A stretch of DNA of 64,000 nt, taken from Escherichia coli. GTDB lineage: Bacteria > Pseudomonadota > Gammaproteobacteria > Enterobacterales > Enterobacteriaceae. Both the position numbers and the translations under genes were made by a program. Below the pieces are notes generated by a model. It was not told the origin of the DNA and made no database searches. It saw only the letters and a list, made by a program, of their open reading frames with translations. Where the stretch lies: assembly GCF_044324875.1 (NCBI RefSeq), contig NZ_CP172185.1. One strand, given 5' to 3'. Within the stretch, counting starts at the first letter, position 1. Each line of letters opens with the position of its first letter. Below, piece after piece: positions 30,992-64,000 of the stretch.

Positions 30992-32512
30992 ATGGTCAGC
31001 TCAACGACTCCGTCTTCCGGGGAATACTTGTTGGAAATGAGCGGTATCAACAAGTCTTTTCCTGGTGTTAAGGCACTTGATAACGTTAATTTAAAAGTCC
31101 GGCCACATTCTATCCATGCATTAATGGGGGAAAACGGCGCAGGAAAATCAACATTATTAAAATGCCTGTTTGGTATTTATCAAAAAGACTCCGGCACCAT
31201 TTTATTCCAGGGTAAAGAGATCGATTTCCATTCTGCAAAAGAAGCGCTGGAAAATGGTATTTCGATGGTACACCAGGAGTTAAACCTGGTATTACAACGT
31301 TCGGTGATGGATAACATGTGGCTGGGGCGATATCCCACCAAAGGCATGTTTGTCGATCAGGACAAAATGTACCGCGAAACCAAAGCGATTTTTGATGAAC
31401 TGGATATTGATATCGATCCGCGTGCGCGCGTCGGCACATTATCCGTTTCGCAAATGCAGATGATCGAAATCGCCAAAGCGTTTTCCTATAACGCGAAAAT
31501 TGTGATTATGGATGAACCGACTTCTTCGTTAACCGAAAAAGAGGTCAATCATCTGTTCACTATTATTCGTAAATTAAAAGAGCGCGGCTGCGGTATTGTT
31601 TATATCTCACATAAAATGGAAGAAATCTTCCAGTTATGTGATGAAGTTACCATATTGCGCGACGGTCAGTGGATCGCCACTGAACCGCTGGCAGGACTGA
31701 CGATGGACAAGATCATCGCCATGATGGTTGGGCGTTCTCTTAACCAGCGTTTCCCTGACAAAGAAAACAAGCCGGGCGAAGTGATTCTTGAAGTGCGTAA
31801 CCTGACGTCGCTGCGCCAGCCATCGATTCGCGATGTGTCGTTTGACCTGCATAAAGGGGAGATCCTCGGTATTGCCGGTCTGGTGGGGGCGAAACGTACC
31901 GATATTGTTGAGACGTTATTTGGTATTCGCGAGAAATCGGCTGGCACCATTACGTTGCACGGCAAAAAGATCAATAACCATAATGCCAACGAAGCCATAA
32001 ACCACGGATTTGCACTGGTAACTGAAGAGCGCCGCTCAACGGGAATTTATGCCTATCTGGATATCGGTTTTAACTCGTTAATTTCCAATATTCGCAACTA
32101 CAAAAATAAAGTTGGTTTACTGGATAACTCGCGGATGAAAAGCGATACCCAGTGGGTGATTGATTCGATGCGGGTAAAAACACCGGGGCATCGGACGCAA
32201 ATTGGTTCGCTCTCCGGCGGTAATCAGCAAAAGGTGATTATTGGTCGCTGGCTACTAACGCAACCAGAAATATTAATGCTCGATGAACCGACGCGCGGTA
32301 TTGATGTCGGAGCGAAGTTTGAAATTTATCAGTTAATTGCCGAGCTGGCGAAGAAAGGCAAGGGGATTATTATTATCTCCTCCGAAATGCCAGAGCTGTT
32401 AGGGATAACAGACCGTATTCTGGTCATGAGCAATGGTCTCGTTTCTGGAATTGTCGATACAAAAACAACAACGCAAAACGAAATTCTGCGTCTTGCGTCT
32501 TTGCACCTTTAA
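30992..32512 (+). CDS. mglA: Galactose/methyl-galactoside ABC transporter ATPase (duplicated ABC domains)
   Basis: 506 aa, two Walker A motifs. Confidence 0.93.
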
Positions 32513-54932: not shown

Positions 54933-55616
54933 TTAAATGCCGAGTGGGAAAATATCATGGCCTTGTTCCTGCCAACTGGTAAGTTGCTGCTGTTGGGCGG
55001 AGGTTCGATTTTCACCGCACCACACCAGCAATGTACGGCCTTCGAACAGTTCAGGGCGTAGTTGATTGAGCGAGTGGGCGAGGACATCAATGCGCCATCC
55101 TTGTTGACTGGCAATCCAGCCCTCCAGCCATAGACGGGTGGTATCGTGAATATTCCAGCCAACCACCAGCGCATCTTTACCCTGTTTTTTACGTGCCGAA
55201 GCCAGGCAAATGGCGATGTAGTTGATCAGTACGCCGTCAAGGATCGCCAGCAGCGCCTGGAGGGTCGGTTGTTGGCACTGAAGTCGTCGGCGCAGAGGAA
55301 TAAACAGATGCGTGGTGAGTGTCTGGGCAGGGTAATCCTGACCGCGCTCTTTGATCCACGTTCGCAGGCTATGCAGATTGCCGCTTTGCAGGTAAGTCAG
55401 TAATGTTTCTTGCTGATCGCGCCAGCCGTTCTGCACATCAACATTTTCATTACTGAGCAGCATTTTAACTTTGCTGACCTGCACGCCGTTGTCGATCCAG
55501 CGTTTGATCTCGCGGATCCGGTCAATATCGGCATCGTTGAACAGCCGATGGCCGCCGTCTGTCCGTTGCGGTTTCAGCAATCCGTAACGCCTCTGCCACG
55601 CGCGTAACGTGACAGG
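54933..55616 (-). pseudogene. mlrA: MerR-family regulator MlrA (YehV) lacking its 5' end, interrupted by prophage insertion
   Basis: Reading frame matches MlrA from ...PVTLRAWQRRYGLLKPQRTDGGHRLF to C-terminus FPLGI; upstream in frame the expected N-terminus (MALYTIGEVALLCDIN) is absent and a stop lies at 55650-55652; no ATG start. Confidence 0.8.
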
Positions 55617-55654
55617 GATTAAGGGTAAACTAACTGATTTTACAAGTTTTTATT

Positions 55655-56941
55655 TTACCCCACTTTCTTATGGGGCATACATGGGACACTTTCAGATAGT
55701 CTTTTGTTAAGGAGTTCTATCTGTTCGTGATTGTTGTCTTTCATCCATGCTCCGTAAACATTGAATACCATTTGTGCGTTTGTGTGGCCCATCTGGCTTG
55801 CGATAAAACTAGGATTAGCTCCAGCGGCAAGTGACCAGCATGCATAAGTATGCCTGGATTGGTACGATTTTCTGTGTCTCAGACCTGCGCGTTTTAAGAT
55901 ACTTGTCCATGACTCCCTGATGGAGTCAACCTTATAGTGCGGTCCGGAAAACTGCCGCTGTTTTATTACCTGAGGACTAAAAACAAAAGTGCATTTATGC
56001 ACAGTACTTCTCCCATATTCCCTCTGCTTTACCTCTACAGAATGTTGCTTTCCAAGCATGGTCATTTCCGCCTGACTTTTAAGAGCATCAATAGCTGGTT
56101 GAACCAGATGAATTGTCCTTCCGGTGCCAGCATCGGTTTTTGGTGGAGTGAATTCGCCAAGTTTTGTATAATTCCTACGGATGGTTATAGTCCTTGCTTT
56201 AAGGTCTATATCTTCCCATGCCAGCGATACCAACTCCCCGTGACGAATACCCGTGTATACAGCGAGAATCCACAGGTTTTTTGTTTGTTGATGACGGCAA
56301 GCCTCAATAAAACGAATAAATTCGTCACGGGTGAGAGGATCTGGTTTTACCTTGGACTTTTTTAAGGGAGCCAGACCGTTAAATGGGTTTCCTGAGGTAT
56401 AACCATTATCTGTTGCAAATTGAAACATTCCAGCTATGGTTGTCATATAGTAGTTTACCGTGACCACTGAGCGCCCTTTTATGGAAGAAGTCTTTCCATT
56501 AGAAAGCTTTTGGTAACCGGTCAACAAATCTCTCCTTACGAAAAGTAAATCCTCTTTTGTTATGGATGAAACCAGTTTTTTTTCACCTAACATTGGTAAC
56601 ATGTTTTTAATTACTGACTGGTAACGGTTAAGTGCATTCGCACAAATCTCAATTTTCTTAAGGTCCAACCATTTTTCCGAAAGTGCCTTAACGGTTATCT
56701 CTCTTTTTCCCAGACCAAAGTGTTTCAGGTTAGGGGAATTAGGGAACTGCGCGGCGTAGTCGAAACTCCCCATTCTGATTGCAAAACAAACGGAAGTGCG
56801 AAGTTCACCTGCGATCTTCCGGTTTTTGGCGGTGTCAGGAACACCGAGGTTTTCTCTGACACGTTTGCCATTATAGTGAAACCATATACGGAGTGATCCT
56901 CCATGGTTTTCAACGCCTGTCGGGTATGATACGTTACTCAT
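55655..56941 (-). CDS. int: Phage tyrosine integrase
   Basis: 428 aa; conserved boxes TGIRHGELVSL and HRKSYQSRHTYACW ... VYGAW; SD gggagg; 3' end faces the att junction. Confidence 0.88.
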   Translation of the reverse strand: MSNVSYPTGVENHGGSLRIWFHYNGKRVRENLGVPDTAKNRKIAGELRTSVCFAIRMGSFDYAAQFPNSPNLKHFGLGKREITVKALSEKWLDLKKIEICANALNRYQSVIKNMLPMLGEKKLVSSITKEDLLFVRRDLLTGYQKLSNGKTSSIKGRSVVTVNYYMTTIAGMFQFATDNGYTSGNPFNGLAPLKKSKVKPDPLTRDEFIRFIEACRHQQTKNLWILAVYTGIRHGELVSLAWEDIDLKARTITIRRNYTKLGEFTPPKTDAGTGRTIHLVQPAIDALKSQAEMTMLGKQHSVEVKQREYGRSTVHKCTFVFSPQVIKQRQFSGPHYKVDSIRESWTSILKRAGLRHRKSYQSRHTYACWSLAAGANPSFIASQMGHTNAQMVFNVYGAWMKDNNHEQIELLNKRLSESVPCMPHKKVG

Positions 56942-58670: not shown

Positions 58671-59009
58671 TTACATGTTCCCCATAACGGTATCGCTCAT
58701 GTCGTTAACCATGCTCTGCCAGATTTCTTTGCCGCTTTGCGTCAGCTCGTTTCCACGAACGCATTTGCTTAACAGCTGAATACCAACGGCTTCCCATTGG
58801 GGGTAATTTTCTTTGATAGCCTTCAGAGCATAACCATCGATTAAATCCCTGATACCTTTAACCCCACCGATGATGTTTACTCGTATGGATTGCCCATTGA
58901 CATTAATCATGAAATGATCTCCGTTGGTGGCGGATATGTGGTTGTGCAGTGCAGCCGCATACTGATTTGCCAGCGCATTGAGGCGGAAATTTTGTGTAAT
59001 GAGTGGCAT
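58671..59009 (-). CDS. Hypothetical phage protein (112 aa)
   Basis: Track ORF; TAATG overlap with the upstream ORF6N gene. Confidence 0.5.
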   Translation of the reverse strand: MPLITQNFRLNALANQYAAALHNHISATNGDHFMINVNGQSIRVNIIGGVKGIRDLIDGYALKAIKENYPQWEAVGIQLLSKCVRGNELTQSGKEIWQSMVNDMSDTVMGNM

Positions 59010-59755
59010 TATTTACCCTCCCAACCAATCACCTGAAACAGCCCCATTTTCGGGTGATACCAGCGGGTACCGCGTGGCTCTGCCTCTGACATCATCTGAT
59101 GAAATGCTTTCATGAACGGCTCAAGCTCCACGATAGCCCGGCGAGAAAGAAGACCATCTGGCGTCATAAATTCGTGCGTATCGGTTGGGATGCTGTAGGC
59201 ATTGACCAGATTGCGGCACTTGGCATCAGTCATTCCGCTTTTGGCGACCACCTGGCGATAACCGACATATCCGGCGCGCATATTTCCGCGTTTGATGTTC
59301 TCCACAGCTTTGGTGACCGTTTCGATCTTCTCTTCAACATGACTCAGGCGCTTCTGCTGGCGAACGGCATCGGCGGCCATTGCAGCGATCATCTCCATTT
59401 CCGTCAGCGGCGCGTGAGTTCGGAAATAGCTGTTAACCAGTTCGCGCTGAACCTGCCATGCAAGAGTATCGTTAAAAGGCTTCGTCAACATCAGGTAACC
59501 AGACTCGAAAAGAATGATCCCTTTGGCAGTTCGCGCGGCAAAGGCATCAGAAAGTGACTCCGTACGTATTACGTCCGCAGTCATTTCAAGAAAATCCACC
59601 CCTTCGATAAAGTGAGAACGGTTGCGGTTAAACGCAGCACGGGCGGTACCTTCCGGGCGCTGGTGGACGTCATCAATCATTGCAAATGTCACAACACGCT
59701 GACCGCGATATTCGATTACCGGAAACTGTTTGTTGTTGATGGTTACAGTATTCAT
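59009..59755 (-). CDS. ORF6N/KilA-N domain protein (antirepressor-like)
   Basis: Start at MNTVTINNKQFPVIEYRGQRVVTF..IDDVHQRPEGTA (SD ggag 7 nt upstream); N-terminal pattern typical of ORF6N/KilA-N DNA-binding domain. Confidence 0.6.
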   Translation of the reverse strand: MNTVTINNKQFPVIEYRGQRVVTFAMIDDVHQRPEGTARAAFNRNRSHFIEGVDFLEMTADVIRTESLSDAFAARTAKGIILFESGYLMLTKPFNDTLAWQVQRELVNSYFRTHAPLTEMEMIAAMAADAVRQQKRLSHVEEKIETVTKAVENIKRGNMRAGYVGYRQVVAKSGMTDAKCRNLVNAYSIPTDTHEFMTPDGLLSRRAIVELEPFMKAFHQMMSEAEPRGTRWYHPKMGLFQVIGWEGK

Positions 59756-59798
59756 TTTTATCTCCAGACAGCCCGGCGTGTAATACCGGGCATATGTA

Positions 59799-60626
59799 TT
59801 ACTTAACCTGAATAAATGGTGTGTTGGCACCGCTGGTCATGTATTGCGGCAGTGTACCGTTCCACTTGTTGATGGCTTCCAGCTCCATAACGTTTGGGTT
59901 CTGGCGCAGAGCTTCACCGCGTAAACGAATAGCATCGGCTTCGGCCTGGGCTTTTGTGCGAATCGCATCTGCCTGTCCGGCAGCTTCCGCGCGCAACATG
60001 TTGGCTTCCGCTTCGCGCTGTTTTACTTCCTGCTCGCGTTGCAGGGTTTTCTGGTTGGCCGTGACTTTGGCATTAATGCTGTCGATAACAGTAGGCGGGT
60101 ACTCCGGCTTACCCACATATGAGAGGCTCATTACCTGAATACCGATGGGCGTCATTTCTTCCTGAATGTCTTTAAGAGCTGCATCCAGCAGCTCAGACTT
60201 GCCGCCGTCGATAAATTTGTCGGTGGTCATTTTGCTGGCCAGTCGGTTGAGTGCGTCGGCTATCTTCTGGCGCAGGTCGGTGTCGGTAATGTCGTCCACG
60301 CCTTTGCGGTAGGTCTGAAAGACTGTGGTAACTTTGGATGGATCAACTTTGTAGGCCACGCCGATGTGATAGCCGATGGTTGTACCGTCACTCATCTGGA
60401 AACTGAATGGATCATCGTAGGTCTTCATCTGCTTAAAGGTCGGGAAGATGTAAACCTCAGTGTTCCATCCCGTCCAGTAGCGCCCAACACCGACCACTTC
60501 ACCGACGCCTTTATCGTCGCCCAGTTTGTTTACTTTGATGCCCACATTACCAGGCTCAACGCGATCGCAACCGACAAGGCCAATGGTCGGCAGAACAATG
60601 GCTAAAGCAAAAAGTAATTTTTTCAT
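59799..60626 (-). CDS. SPFH/band-7 (prohibitin/HflKC-like) lipoprotein
   Basis: 275 aa; signal peptide with lipobox LVGC; SPFH-type core and C-terminal coiled-coil QREQEVKQREAEANMLRAEAAGQADAIRTKAQAEADAIR. Confidence 0.7.
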   Translation of the reverse strand: MKKLLFALAIVLPTIGLVGCDRVEPGNVGIKVNKLGDDKGVGEVVGVGRYWTGWNTEVYIFPTFKQMKTYDDPFSFQMSDGTTIGYHIGVAYKVDPSKVTTVFQTYRKGVDDITDTDLRQKIADALNRLASKMTTDKFIDGGKSELLDAALKDIQEEMTPIGIQVMSLSYVGKPEYPPTVIDSINAKVTANQKTLQREQEVKQREAEANMLRAEAAGQADAIRTKAQAEADAIRLRGEALRQNPNVMELEAINKWNGTLPQYMTSGANTPFIQVK

Positions 60627-60811
60627 CTTTTATCCTTAGAAAAAGAAAGACCCTTATAAATGGCATAAATGCAGGGCGGGGTCAGACACGCCAGAGCAAA
60701 GCCAGAAATCACTGCTATCGTATCCTTCATGGATATAAGGAACGGAACGAGTAATCCGTAAATGCATGCGATAATTGCCAGTAAAATTACTATTGTGAAA
60801 TACAGTCTCAT
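60623..60811 (-). CDS. Small two-TM membrane protein coupled to the SPFH gene
   Basis: 62 aa MRLYFTIVILLAIIACIYGLLVPFLISMKDTIAVISGFALACL...; 4-nt start/stop overlap with the SPFH gene. Confidence 0.55.
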   Translation of the reverse strand: MRLYFTIVILLAIIACIYGLLVPFLISMKDTIAVISGFALACLTPPCIYAIYKGLSFSKDKR

Positions 60812-61950: not shown

Positions 61951-62316
61951 TTATTGCGCTAATTCTTTTTCGGCAGCAGATTTTGCATATTCACATGCAA
62001 AATTCAGAATTTCGCTGCCAAGTGTTTTTGTTTCGTGATTACTGGACATATGTAATACCTGTGTTGCATGCAATAAATGATAAACATTTACCGCAAATGA
62101 GTCCGGCTCCAGACAAATGCCTTCATAATCATCTTGTTGTGAGGTTGTTTCTGTCATTGCTCCTGAAGTGCATGCGAGCCTGTTTTTGACAATTCTCTTT
62201 CCTCTAATCACTATATCGGCAACATCTATTGCCTTTACAACCTCCGGGAGAAGTTCCGGGTTTGTATAATCAAAGTCATCAACATGGAGAACAGTTATGT
62301 TTTCGAACTTTTTCAT
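61951..62316 (-). CDS. Hypothetical phage protein (121 aa)
   Basis: Track ORF with SD gaggaag upstream. Confidence 0.5.
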   Translation of the reverse strand: MKKFENITVLHVDDFDYTNPELLPEVVKAIDVADIVIRGKRIVKNRLACTSGAMTETTSQQDDYEGICLEPDSFAVNVYHLLHATQVLHMSSNHETKTLGSEILNFACEYAKSAAEKELAQ

Positions 62317-62444
62317 GGCTTCCTCAGCTGACTTATATGTTCTGCTATATAGCGAGTCTCAGAAGTGTTTTCATATTGAGACTGTTTCCGCAATGATTGA
62401 TAAAAATGTTCGCATGTACCTTGAGGGGCGAAGCGGCGATTATG

Positions 62445-62903
62445 TCACCATTGGTATTGGTTCTTCCGTAGAAGAGCTTCGCGAGATAAGGAGCAAACTT
62501 GTTGAGATGCGTCATGGTGTTGCTGCTCCTCACTTTTTGGTTGCTCCGGAGGAGTAACCTCGCCAGTTAACAGCCACATCGGATCACAGCCAAGAACATT
62601 AGCCAGAGGGATAATCTGGCTTGCCAGAGGCTCCCTCTTGCCACTTTCCCACTGGATGATAATTTCTTCATCGAGATTGAGCAGCCTGGCGAGTTCGGCG
62701 GTTGTTAAGCCGCAGGCTTCGCGTTGGGTGTCAATAGAGCGATATTTTTTGTTTCCAGAAGGTAACAGAACACGTTTTATCTGTTGGATTTTTTCTATTG
62801 CAACTTCAATGAGTATGTTGCGGTTTCTTTCTGATGCAGACTCCATGCTTTCATGAAGTAGTGATTCTGCTTGTTCGATAAGAATCAGTTGTAAAGAAGA
62901 CAT
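62445..62903 (-). CDS. HTH (XRE/Cro-type) domain protein immediately downstream of cI
   Basis: 152 aa; central segment LTTAELARLLNLDEEIIIQWESGKREPLASQIIPLANVLGCDPMWLLTG is a typical XRE helix-turn-helix; SD gagg. Confidence 0.6.
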   Translation of the reverse strand: MSSLQLILIEQAESLLHESMESASERNRNILIEVAIEKIQQIKRVLLPSGNKKYRSIDTQREACGLTTAELARLLNLDEEIIIQWESGKREPLASQIIPLANVLGCDPMWLLTGEVTPPEQPKSEEQQHHDASQQVCSLSREALLRKNQYQW

Positions 62904-62911
62904 AAGAAAAC

Positions 62912-62946
62912 CTCGTAACCAACATTTCGAAATCTAGGTTACGAGT
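62912..62946. promoter_or_regulatory. Palindrome between cI and the downstream HTH gene; candidate operator or terminator
   Basis: ctcgtaacc-N17-ggttacgag (9-bp arms); spacer contains gaaatctaggtt, which recurs in the cI-cro intergenic region. Confidence 0.4.
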
Positions 62947-62988
62947 GAGTAATGTAGGTGTCAAGTGTAATTGATAATTTTTTGTTGA

Positions 62989-63648
62989 TTAAATTTGCAT
63001 ACGCATCTCAACGACAACACCAAGAATTTCACAATCGCCATTGATAGGGATCAGTGGATAGCGTGGGTTTAGTGGTTTTAAGAAACATTGTCCTGCGTCT
63101 TCAATGTACTGTTTGAGGGTTGCTTCACCGGAATTTTTGAGTCTAGCGACAACATATTTTCCTGAAAAAACTTCTTTGTCAGGGTTTACAAGAATGTTCA
63201 TGCCTTCAAAGATTGAGAACTCCCCATTCTGTGACGTCATTGAGTCACCTTTTACCTCCAGCCAGAATCCGTTATCTCCTGCATATATATCGCTACCGAT
63301 CCAATCTTCTGGATAAGGTATGTAATCTTCGCAGTTCCAAGGGCCGGCGCTCACCCATGTTAATTTTGGGTATCTGTAACGCGTTGGAGAAGCTGGTTTG
63401 GGGTTTCGAACGTTTTGAATACTATCTGTAGGTGAAGGTTCGCTACCATCAAGGAGCCATTTAGGTGAGCATTTTAATGCATCTGCGATCCTGAATAGGT
63501 TTGACGATCTTGTGTCTTGTGAGTCTCCTAACTCTATTTTGCTGATTGTTACACGTGAGACACCCGTCAATTTTGCCAGGTCATCTTGTGACATGCCTAG
63601 CTGAACTCTACGCATTAACAATCTCTGTCCAAAACTATCGTGTTCCAT
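62989..63648 (-). CDS. cI: CI-type phage repressor (HTH plus LexA-like S24 peptidase domain)
   Basis: 219 aa; N-terminal HTH MSQDDLAKLTGVSRVTISKIELG; C-terminal domain with GDSM serine motif and downstream lysine. Confidence 0.8.
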   Translation of the reverse strand: MEHDSFGQRLLMRRVQLGMSQDDLAKLTGVSRVTISKIELGDSQDTRSSNLFRIADALKCSPKWLLDGSEPSPTDSIQNVRNPKPASPTRYRYPKLTWVSAGPWNCEDYIPYPEDWIGSDIYAGDNGFWLEVKGDSMTSQNGEFSIFEGMNILVNPDKEVFSGKYVVARLKNSGEATLKQYIEDAGQCFLKPLNPRYPLIPINGDCEILGVVVEMRMQI

Positions 63649-63661
63649 CTTTTCTCTCCGT

Positions 63662-63746
63662 TGTCGAAATGATTTTTTCGAAACAAATATATCAAAAAAT
63701 ATTGAAATCTAGGTTTCGCAAAACTAAGATTGTTCGAAACAAACGT
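63662..63746. promoter_or_regulatory. Divergent cI/cro promoter-operator region with repeated TTCGAAAC-type sites
   Basis: tgtcgaaat, ttttcgaaacaaa, gaaatctaggtttcgcaaaac, tgttcgaaacaaacg between the divergent starts. Confidence 0.5.
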
Positions 63747-63758
63747 GTCGAGGTCGAT

Positions 63759-63968
63759 ATGGATTTGTATGAAATTCTAAAAAACATATTTGGTTCGAAT
63801 GTTGAGATCGGTCGCCATTTTCCCCGAAAGGGAAGGGCTAGAACTGGACAGGCTGTAGGAAAGTGGAAAAAACAAGGGGTACCGGAGGATGTAGCGATTC
63901 TTTGCCATCTGGATCCCGCAATTCCTTATCAGCATCCGCCTCTCACGAACGGTAGTAATGGCGTATGA
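63759..63968 (+). CDS. cro: Cro-like small DNA-binding regulator
   Basis: 69 aa MDLYEILKNIFGSNVEIGRHFPRKGRARTGQAVGKWKK...; divergent from cI, SD gagg; start chosen at internal ATG of a longer track ORF. Confidence 0.55.
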   Translation: MDLYEILKNIFGSNVEIGRHFPRKGRARTGQAVGKWKKQGVPEDVAILCHLDPAIPYQHPPLTNGSNGV

Positions 63969-64000
63969 AATCTCTCCGGAGGGCTGTATGTCCCAGAGTT

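Follow-up and report, generated by a model that had tools for sequence, protein, structure and literature searches.

A probable lambda-style CI/Cro immunity switch with predicted 18-bp operator dyads in a phiP27-like Escherichia coli prophage beside mlrA (yehV)

The right end of the window, by which we mean the whole 64,000-nt stretch of Escherichia coli DNA that was analysed, most likely carries the immunity region of a lambdoid, phiP27-like prophage beside mlrA (yehV), in which a CI repressor, a divergent protein in the Cro position and repeated operator dyads form a lambda-style switch. We put the probability of this reading at roughly 0.8. The switch is intact-looking and fits a working state as far as its sequence can tell. 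The three central elements are:

62989-63648, minus strand, cI repressor gene, a 219-aa ORF with an N-terminal HTH and a C-terminal S24 autopeptidase
63649-63758, OR control region, 110 bp, divergent, with predicted PRM and PR and four operator dyads
63759-63968, plus strand, cro-like gene, 69 aa, PHROG_4749 ('unknown function'), with a GAGG Shine-Dalgarno sequence at 63750-63753

Results

The repressor is nearest to lambda CI

In Pfam, residues 13-65 of CI match HTH_3 (E 2.3e-14) and residues 106-213 match Peptidase_S24 (PF00717, E 6.9e-23), with a GDSM motif at residues 134-137; the description given in an earlier note on this DNA, HTH plus S24 with GDSM, therefore holds. The PHROGs family is PHROG_4, 'transcriptional repressor' (E 1.6e-55). 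The label 'LexA-like' used in the same note does not survive, since by sequence the protein is far nearer to lambda CI: intact lambda CI (3bdn) is the nearest solved structure (E 7e-27) and structures of the lambda CI C-terminal domain match at E 1e-22 to 1e-26, whereas LexA C-terminal domains reach only about 1e-6. The N-terminal matches in the PDB sequence comparison are the N-terminal domains of P22 C2, 434 Cro and 434 repressor.

The residues needed for self-cleavage can be placed by alignment. VSAGPW of CI aligns with lambda VQAGMF, which holds the scissile bond Ala111-Gly112, and this corresponds to Ala101-Gly102 (counted from Met1), located in the linker between the HTH and S24 domains. 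FWLEVKGDSMT aligns with lambda FWLEVEGNSMT, so that lambda Ser149 corresponds to Ser136, and Lys179 (in EATLKQY) falls opposite lambda Lys192, which is mutated in the K192A crystal forms. Ala101-Gly102, Ser136 and Lys179 are invariant in an alignment of 19 CI family members from Escherichia, Salmonella, Cedecea, Morganella, Proteus, Providencia and Photorhabdus, with identity down to 43%. The Ser/Lys dyad, whose absence on alignment with known repressors had been named beforehand as grounds for rejection, is thus present. In other words, CI has the N-terminal HTH, Peptidase_S24 domain, Ser/Lys dyad and Ala-Gly linker site of an autocleavable repressor and, judged by alignment, is a lambda-CI-type repressor with its cleavage site, nucleophile Ser136 and base Lys179 in place. 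From what is known of lambda CI, LexA and UmuD, its self-cleavage would be stimulated by RecA.

Operators are probably better described as 18-bp dyads

Relatives whose overall identity ranges from 96% to 53% have exactly the same CI recognition region, TGVSRVTISKIELG-SQDTRS, and the same operators are therefore expected in them. We aligned nine diverged OR regions, which are homologous and not independent of one another. Six blocks are conserved without any indel:

63679-63683, CGAAA
AATATAnCA, on the minus strand TGnTATAwT, an extended -10
63702-63707, TTGwAA
63710-63717, TAGnTTTC
63725-63730, TAnnAT
63735-63739, CGAAA

When the reverse-complement partner of CGAAA was sought at spacings of 0-14, spacing 6 gave 4.5 of 6 matches and the other spacings 0.7-2.2 (averages over 21 sites in four diverged genomes). 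Since spacing 6 stands out, the operator unit appears to be an 18-bp dyad, TCGAAA-N6-TTTCGA. Six such dyads are predicted in the immunity region:

63664-63681, dyad A1, TCGAAATGATTTTTTCGA, 0 mismatches, in the PRM leader
63678-63695, dyad A2, TCGAAACAAATATATCAA, 2 mismatches, over the predicted PRM -10 and start
63702-63719, dyad B, TTGAAATCTAGGTTTCGC, 2 mismatches, over the PR -35 and spacer
63734-63751, dyad C, TCGAAACAAACGTGTCGA, 1 mismatch, over the predicted PR start
62913-62930, dyad L1, TCGTAACCAACATTTCGA, 1 mismatch, in OL
62927-62944, dyad L2, TCGAAATCTAGGTTACGA, 1 mismatch, in OL

At no more than 2 mismatches the dyad occurs seven times in the 64-kb window, six times within 62913-63751, clustered solely in the two control regions on either side of cI, and once as an isolated chromosomal site at 31248. 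By chance the 195 nt of intergenic DNA should hold about 0.11 dyads, and three were not reached in any of 3000 simulations; this statistic is post hoc because the consensus was derived from the same sequence.

The predicted promoters are:

63702-63730, plus strand, predicted PR, with -35 TTGAAA (63702-63707), a 17-nt spacer and -10 TAAGAT (63725-63730); start near 63737
63686-63694, minus strand, predicted PRM, with the extended -10 TGATATATT; start near 63679
62936-62964, minus strand, predicted PL, with -35 TTGACA (62964-62959), a 17-nt spacer and -10 TAACCT (62941-62936); start near 62929

PR was the only sigma-70-like match of a promoter scan over 62200-64000, and its pattern TTGwAA-17-TAnnAT is kept in all relatives. 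PRM and PL are inferred as promoters from sequence: TGnTATAwT of PRM is kept in all nine relatives, and TTGACw-17-TAAyCT of PL is kept in L094, L006, L007 and L097, its conservation extending over Salmonella, Cedecea-type and Morganella relatives. The predicted PRM leader is 30 nt long and includes the cI Shine-Dalgarno sequence GGAGAG (reverse complement of 63654-63659). As in lambdoid switches, repeated dyads at no more than 2 mismatches lie over the predicted divergent PR and PRM (four in 110 bp), and a second set lies at the leftward promoter, over the conserved TTGACA-17-TAACCT of OL/PL.

Dyads A2, B and C are found at identical offsets in the nine relatives that share the CI recognition helix, and A1 is strong only in the window prophage and its E. 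coli relative. Conservation of A2 and B is confounded, however, because promoter hexamers occupy the right half of A2 (PRM -10) and the left half of B. In the phiP27 class, three dyads lie at the same -24/0/+32 offsets from the PR -35, with half-site TTGATA(C). The distances between neighbouring OR dyads are 14 bp (A1-A2), 24 bp (A2-B) and 32 bp (B-C). A1 and A2 overlap by a shared TCGA (4 bp), and so do L1 and L2 (62913-62944), left of cI, whose central TCGA lies inside a 34-bp palindrome (62912-62945) kept with symmetric changes in L094, L006, L007 and L095. Because of this 4-bp overlap, A1/A2 and L1/L2 could not both be filled by ordinary dimers. Such overlapping double dyads sharing TCGA are seen at OL in five lineages and as A1/A2 in the window. 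Dyads B and L2 have the 12-mer GAAATCTAGGTT in common, and at both positions relatives favour the palindromic spacer CCTAGG, for which reason B and L2 are probably the strongest, highest-affinity sites.

The OL palindrome was also considered as a terminator of cI. As RNA its hairpin would be of modest stability (-14.5 kcal/mol, z -1.75) and a scan for terminators did not call it, so that we rejected it in this role; a terminator function would be possible at most as a secondary one. As with the fixed offsets of A2, B and C and the phiP27-class dyads, support for the dyad that is less circular comes from an extra N6 dyad, which lies just downstream of the cI stop codon, at a non-homologous position, in L094, L006, L007, L095, L096 and L097 (for example TTGTAA-AAAAAG-TTTCGG); the homologous stretch of the window, about 62966-62985, is degenerate.

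The divergent 69-aa protein has a predicted Cro fold

The cro-like ORF starts with ATG at 63759 and diverges from cI, with 110 bp between the start codons. The position is constant: in 80 of 80 IMG/VR loci found with the 69-aa protein, it lies divergently beside an HTH-S24 repressor. A confident AlphaFold2 model built with 14 homologues (pLDDT 84) has helices at residues 3-11, 14-20, 30-39 and 43-51. In Foldseek the model matches two Cro proteins best, XPH1 and Xfaso1, with weak E-values, and a structural comparison with 48,164 PDB chains places three Cro proteins at the top. By sequence the picture is different. There is no significant similarity to the all-alpha Cro proteins of P22 (1rzs), N15 (2hin) and Xfaso1 (3bd1); Pfam gives no match at E below 0.08 and none to Cro, NCBIfam gives no match, and a PDB sequence search gives none with either the protein or its 14-member profile, so that sequence does not place the protein in a described Cro family. 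Alignment by hhalign with P22 Cro (sequence checked against 1rzs) is not significant (E 0.035, probability 1.5%); the HTH helices are in register, with an insertion in the turn. Where all-alpha Cro proteins have the turn between HTH helices 2 and 3, the 69-aa protein has a 9-residue basic loop, PRKGRARTG (residues 22-30). Homologues are annotated as 'hypothetical protein' in every deposited phage that carries one, including phiP27 and nine Stx1a/Stx2a phages.

What makes the protein Cro-like is thus its being a small divergent gene across the operators, together with a Cro-type predicted fold. On the strength of synteny and that model, and despite the lack of a sequence-family match, we regard it as a protein that occupies the Cro position and has, by prediction, the fold of an all-alpha Cro. 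The divergent Cro proposed earlier accordingly stands as a 69-aa ORF, with its identity drawn from position and predicted fold rather than from a sequence family.

Residues 30-39, the putative recognition helix (QxVGKWxxxG), are nearly invariant across two CI helix classes (homologues L013-L092), and residue 10 is the sole position of the family that separates these classes. Either the two operator classes, both TyGAwA-N6, may be similar enough to be read by one helix, or Cro may not discriminate between them. In L028, Cro ends with the C-terminus found in the class-I Cro of E. coli, pointing to recombination within the cro gene.

Both coding and control sequences are constrained

Compared with its E. 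coli relative (DNA identity about 86%), cI shows dN/dS of 0.04 at dS 0.60 and is under strong purifying selection; for cro, dN/dS is 0.20. OR is 93% identical to that of the relative although flanking synonymous sites are at dS 0.5-0.6, and OR and OL DNA are 92-93% identical against about 59% identity at neighbouring synonymous sites. Since coding and control sequences are both constrained, the pattern fits a working switch.

The prophage and its neighbourhood

The chromosome in the window is about 97.5% identical to E. coli. The prophage genes include:

55655-56941, minus strand, prophage integrase, at the start of the prophage and abutting an mlrA (yehV)-like ORF (both within 54933-56941)
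59009-59830, minus strand, ORF6N/antirepressor-like gene, PHROG_1726, leftward operon
59799-60626, minus strand, SPFH-domain lipoprotein, PHROG_200, leftward operon
60623-60811, minus strand, 62-aa membrane protein, PHROG_1130, leftward operon
62445-62903, minus strand, 152-aa HTH protein, first gene left of OL/PL, PHROG_4739 (E 7e-50) and PHROG_4836 ('CII-like regulator')

The insertion site, mlrA/yehV, is the classic site of Stx1 phages. In E. coli LH50-c the prophage is inserted at this site too (L093, 15934-17942) and its left arm is the same, but the cI/cro module is another one; such a different immunity module on the same left arm is the usual lambdoid mosaicism. The SPFH lipoprotein and the 62-aa membrane protein look like moron-type cargo. 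The 152-aa HTH protein shows weak similarity to the DicA family, below the curated cut-off. Its gene stands at the position of lambda N, and its Shine-Dalgarno sequence GAGG is within the left arm of the OL palindrome.

An 86-aa ORF (62297-62557, plus strand) runs antisense to the leftward operon and overlaps two genes there, the 152-aa HTH gene over its final 113 nt and the following gene over its initial 20 nt. Its match to PHROG_6104 spans the full length (E 1e-49), and Pfam gives no match. The frame is open in phages PhiR49_2 (98% aa identity) and ASU11 (80%), neither of which has this ORF annotated on that strand. The ORF may be a genuine convergent gene or else a shadow ORF.

Of the prophage, the window covers no more than the leftmost 7 kb, its last position, 64000, being 32 bp past the end of cro. 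Beyond this point the related E. coli prophage has two small ORFs and genes for a DEAD-box helicase, a toprim primase and a Q antiterminator.

Discussion

Proposed working of the switch

If the reading above is right, CI dimers would bind the 18-bp dyads. Occupation of C and B, over the PR start and -35, would turn off cro and the rightward genes, and at high CI levels A2 and A1, over the PRM -10, start and leader, would bring about negative autoregulation. The OL dyads, which together lie over the PL -10 and start, with L2 on the -10 and L1 on the early transcribed region, would keep the leftward operon off. Whether CI also activates PRM cannot be assumed from lambda, because the B-C distance of 32 bp and the position of B at about -31 from the predicted PRM start both differ from lambda. 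Upon DNA damage, activated RecA would stimulate self-cleavage of CI at Ala-Gly, parting the DNA-binding from the dimerisation domain and thereby derepressing PR and PL. Cro would then bind the same dyads and hold PRM off, while PL would drive the leftward early operon, starting with the 152-aa HTH protein. A search for LexA boxes in the prophage part of the window found none, which fits direct cleavage of CI rather than a LexA-controlled antirepressor.

Comparison with lambda and phiP27-type phages

Much of this design is shared with lambda. In both, CI combines HTH and S24 domains with aligning Ala-Gly, Ser and Lys residues (C-terminal domain E about 1e-26), PRM and PR diverge with operators over both, and a second operator set, predicted here, is present at PL left of cI. 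The details differ. Lambda operators are 17 bp long and spaced by 23-24 bp, whereas here 18-bp TCGAAA-N6-TTTCGA dyads are predicted at spacings of 14, 24 and 32 bp. The PRM transcript of lambda is leaderless, whereas the predicted PRM has an extended -10 and a leader with a Shine-Dalgarno sequence. Some 770 bp separate OL from OR, with no rexAB or anything else between cI and PL, and unlike in lambda there is no N gene, the first PL gene encoding an HTH protein instead.

The closest deposited phages are phiP27 and Stx1a/Stx2a prophage modules, identity being 50% for CI and 65% for Cro. Common to them and the window prophage are the Cro family, the OR geometry (-24/0/+32 dyads), related left-arm genes and, in the case of Stx1 phages, insertion at mlrA/yehV. 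On the other hand, the CI recognition helix is TRVAISKAEQG in the phiP27 type and SRVTISKIELG here, and the half-site is TTGATA[C] there and TCGAAA here; because both differ, the prophage is probably heteroimmune to the phiP27 type. Megablast against phages gave no match over cI/cro, and no deposited phage has the immunity type of the window, the best CI identity being 50%. A contig search with CI returned one Proteus locus; the other relatives came from IMG/VR, E. coli genomes and exact-protein matches. A literature search on phiP27 operators or Cro returned nothing specific.

Alternative explanations

The earlier note had described the operators as 'TTCGAAAC-type palindromes' and quoted three strings from the divergent region:

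63676-63684, tttcgaaac, read directly
63713-63724, gtttcgcaaaac, read directly
63732-63740, gttcgaaac, read directly

In that case CI dimers would be centred on the TCGA or CG core of the short near-palindromes TTTCGAAAC, GTTTCGCAAAAC and GTTCGAAAC, which we consider improbable. The strings do exist and are non-random: the 110 bp contain three copies of their core CGAAAC/GTTTCG, where the rate over the whole window predicts 0.08 (Poisson P about 8e-5). In addition, TTTCGAAA is a perfect 8-bp palindrome in the window. They do not behave as palindromic units, however. Across the nine diverged relatives, whose CI recognition helix is the same, each site retains its CGAAA half but not the opposite one, and in the seven that are more remote than the near-identical E. 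coli copy just 0-3 of the 6 symmetric pairs of the middle site persist. Moreover, TTTCGAAAC with up to one mismatch allowed shows no enrichment over the window as a whole (24 found, 20.9 expected), a palindrome of 8-12 bp is short for an HTH dimer, and nearly every CGAAA has a partner half-site at N6. The short strings thus caught the half-site, but their palindromic register is probably wrong, and the 18-bp dyad TCGAAA-N6-TTTCGA, with four copies at OR and two at OL, beyond the coordinates that the note gave, is likely the better operator model. A further string, GTTTCGAAC inside cI (63403-63411; an exact inverted copy of the 9-mer at 63732-63740), was rejected as a distal operator, as it gives no 18-bp dyad even at 3 mismatches; it is probably due to chance.

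The 69-aa protein could instead be a conserved early protein of heteroimmune phages that is not an operator-specific Cro and either recognises something that all these control regions have in common or acts elsewhere than on the operators. Its near-invariant residues 30-39 across two CI HTH classes with different operators, the absence of a sequence match to known Cro families and the basic loop in place of the HTH turn would all agree with this. Yet the position opposite cI never varies, three Cro proteins are the top structural matches, and the operators of both classes, being TyGAwA-N6 dyads with equal offsets, are related, which makes a shared Cro reading helix plausible; on balance we find this alternative unlikely. 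Induction through an antirepressor, as in Gifsy-type prophages, rather than through RecA-stimulated CI cleavage might be suggested by the ORF6N/antirepressor-like gene at 59009-59830 (PHROG_1726, E 1.6e-69), but this gene belongs to the leftward operon, a target of repression by CI on the present reading; no LexA box was found in the prophage part of the window, and the cleavage site and catalytic dyad, neither of which a non-cleavable repressor needs, are intact and strongly conserved. We therefore regard it as very improbable. The region could also be left over from a defective prophage, with intact switch genes and no inducible phage remaining, given that just the left 7 kb lies within the window. 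The strong purifying selection on cI, cro and operators and the continuation of related E. coli prophages into helicase, primase and Q genes speak against it, and we give it little chance; nor would it really contradict the lambda-style switch, since a defective prophage could keep a working one.

Implications

It is possible to go one step further and to speculate that PHROG_4749 is an unrecognised Cro lineage, with a loop in place of the turn and a near-constant reading helix, and that the overlapping TCGA-sharing dyads are composite operators with two mutually exclusive registers. We hold this combined proposal to be rather doubtful. If its first part were true, immunity specificity in this phage group would come from CI alone and Cro would be cross-reactive.

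The lambda-style switch described here adds an uncharacterised immunity specificity to the lambdoid family within an ordinary lambda design, and our understanding of lambdoid switches is unchanged by it. What it does offer is a testable operator consensus, TCGAAA-N6-TTTCGA, together with a promoter map for the switch. In addition, proteins listed as 'hypothetical' or of 'unknown function' in GenBank, RefSeq and PHROGs receive the functional label 'Cro-like', and their family, PHROG_4749, has members in Shiga-toxin phages, where the switch controls toxin release.
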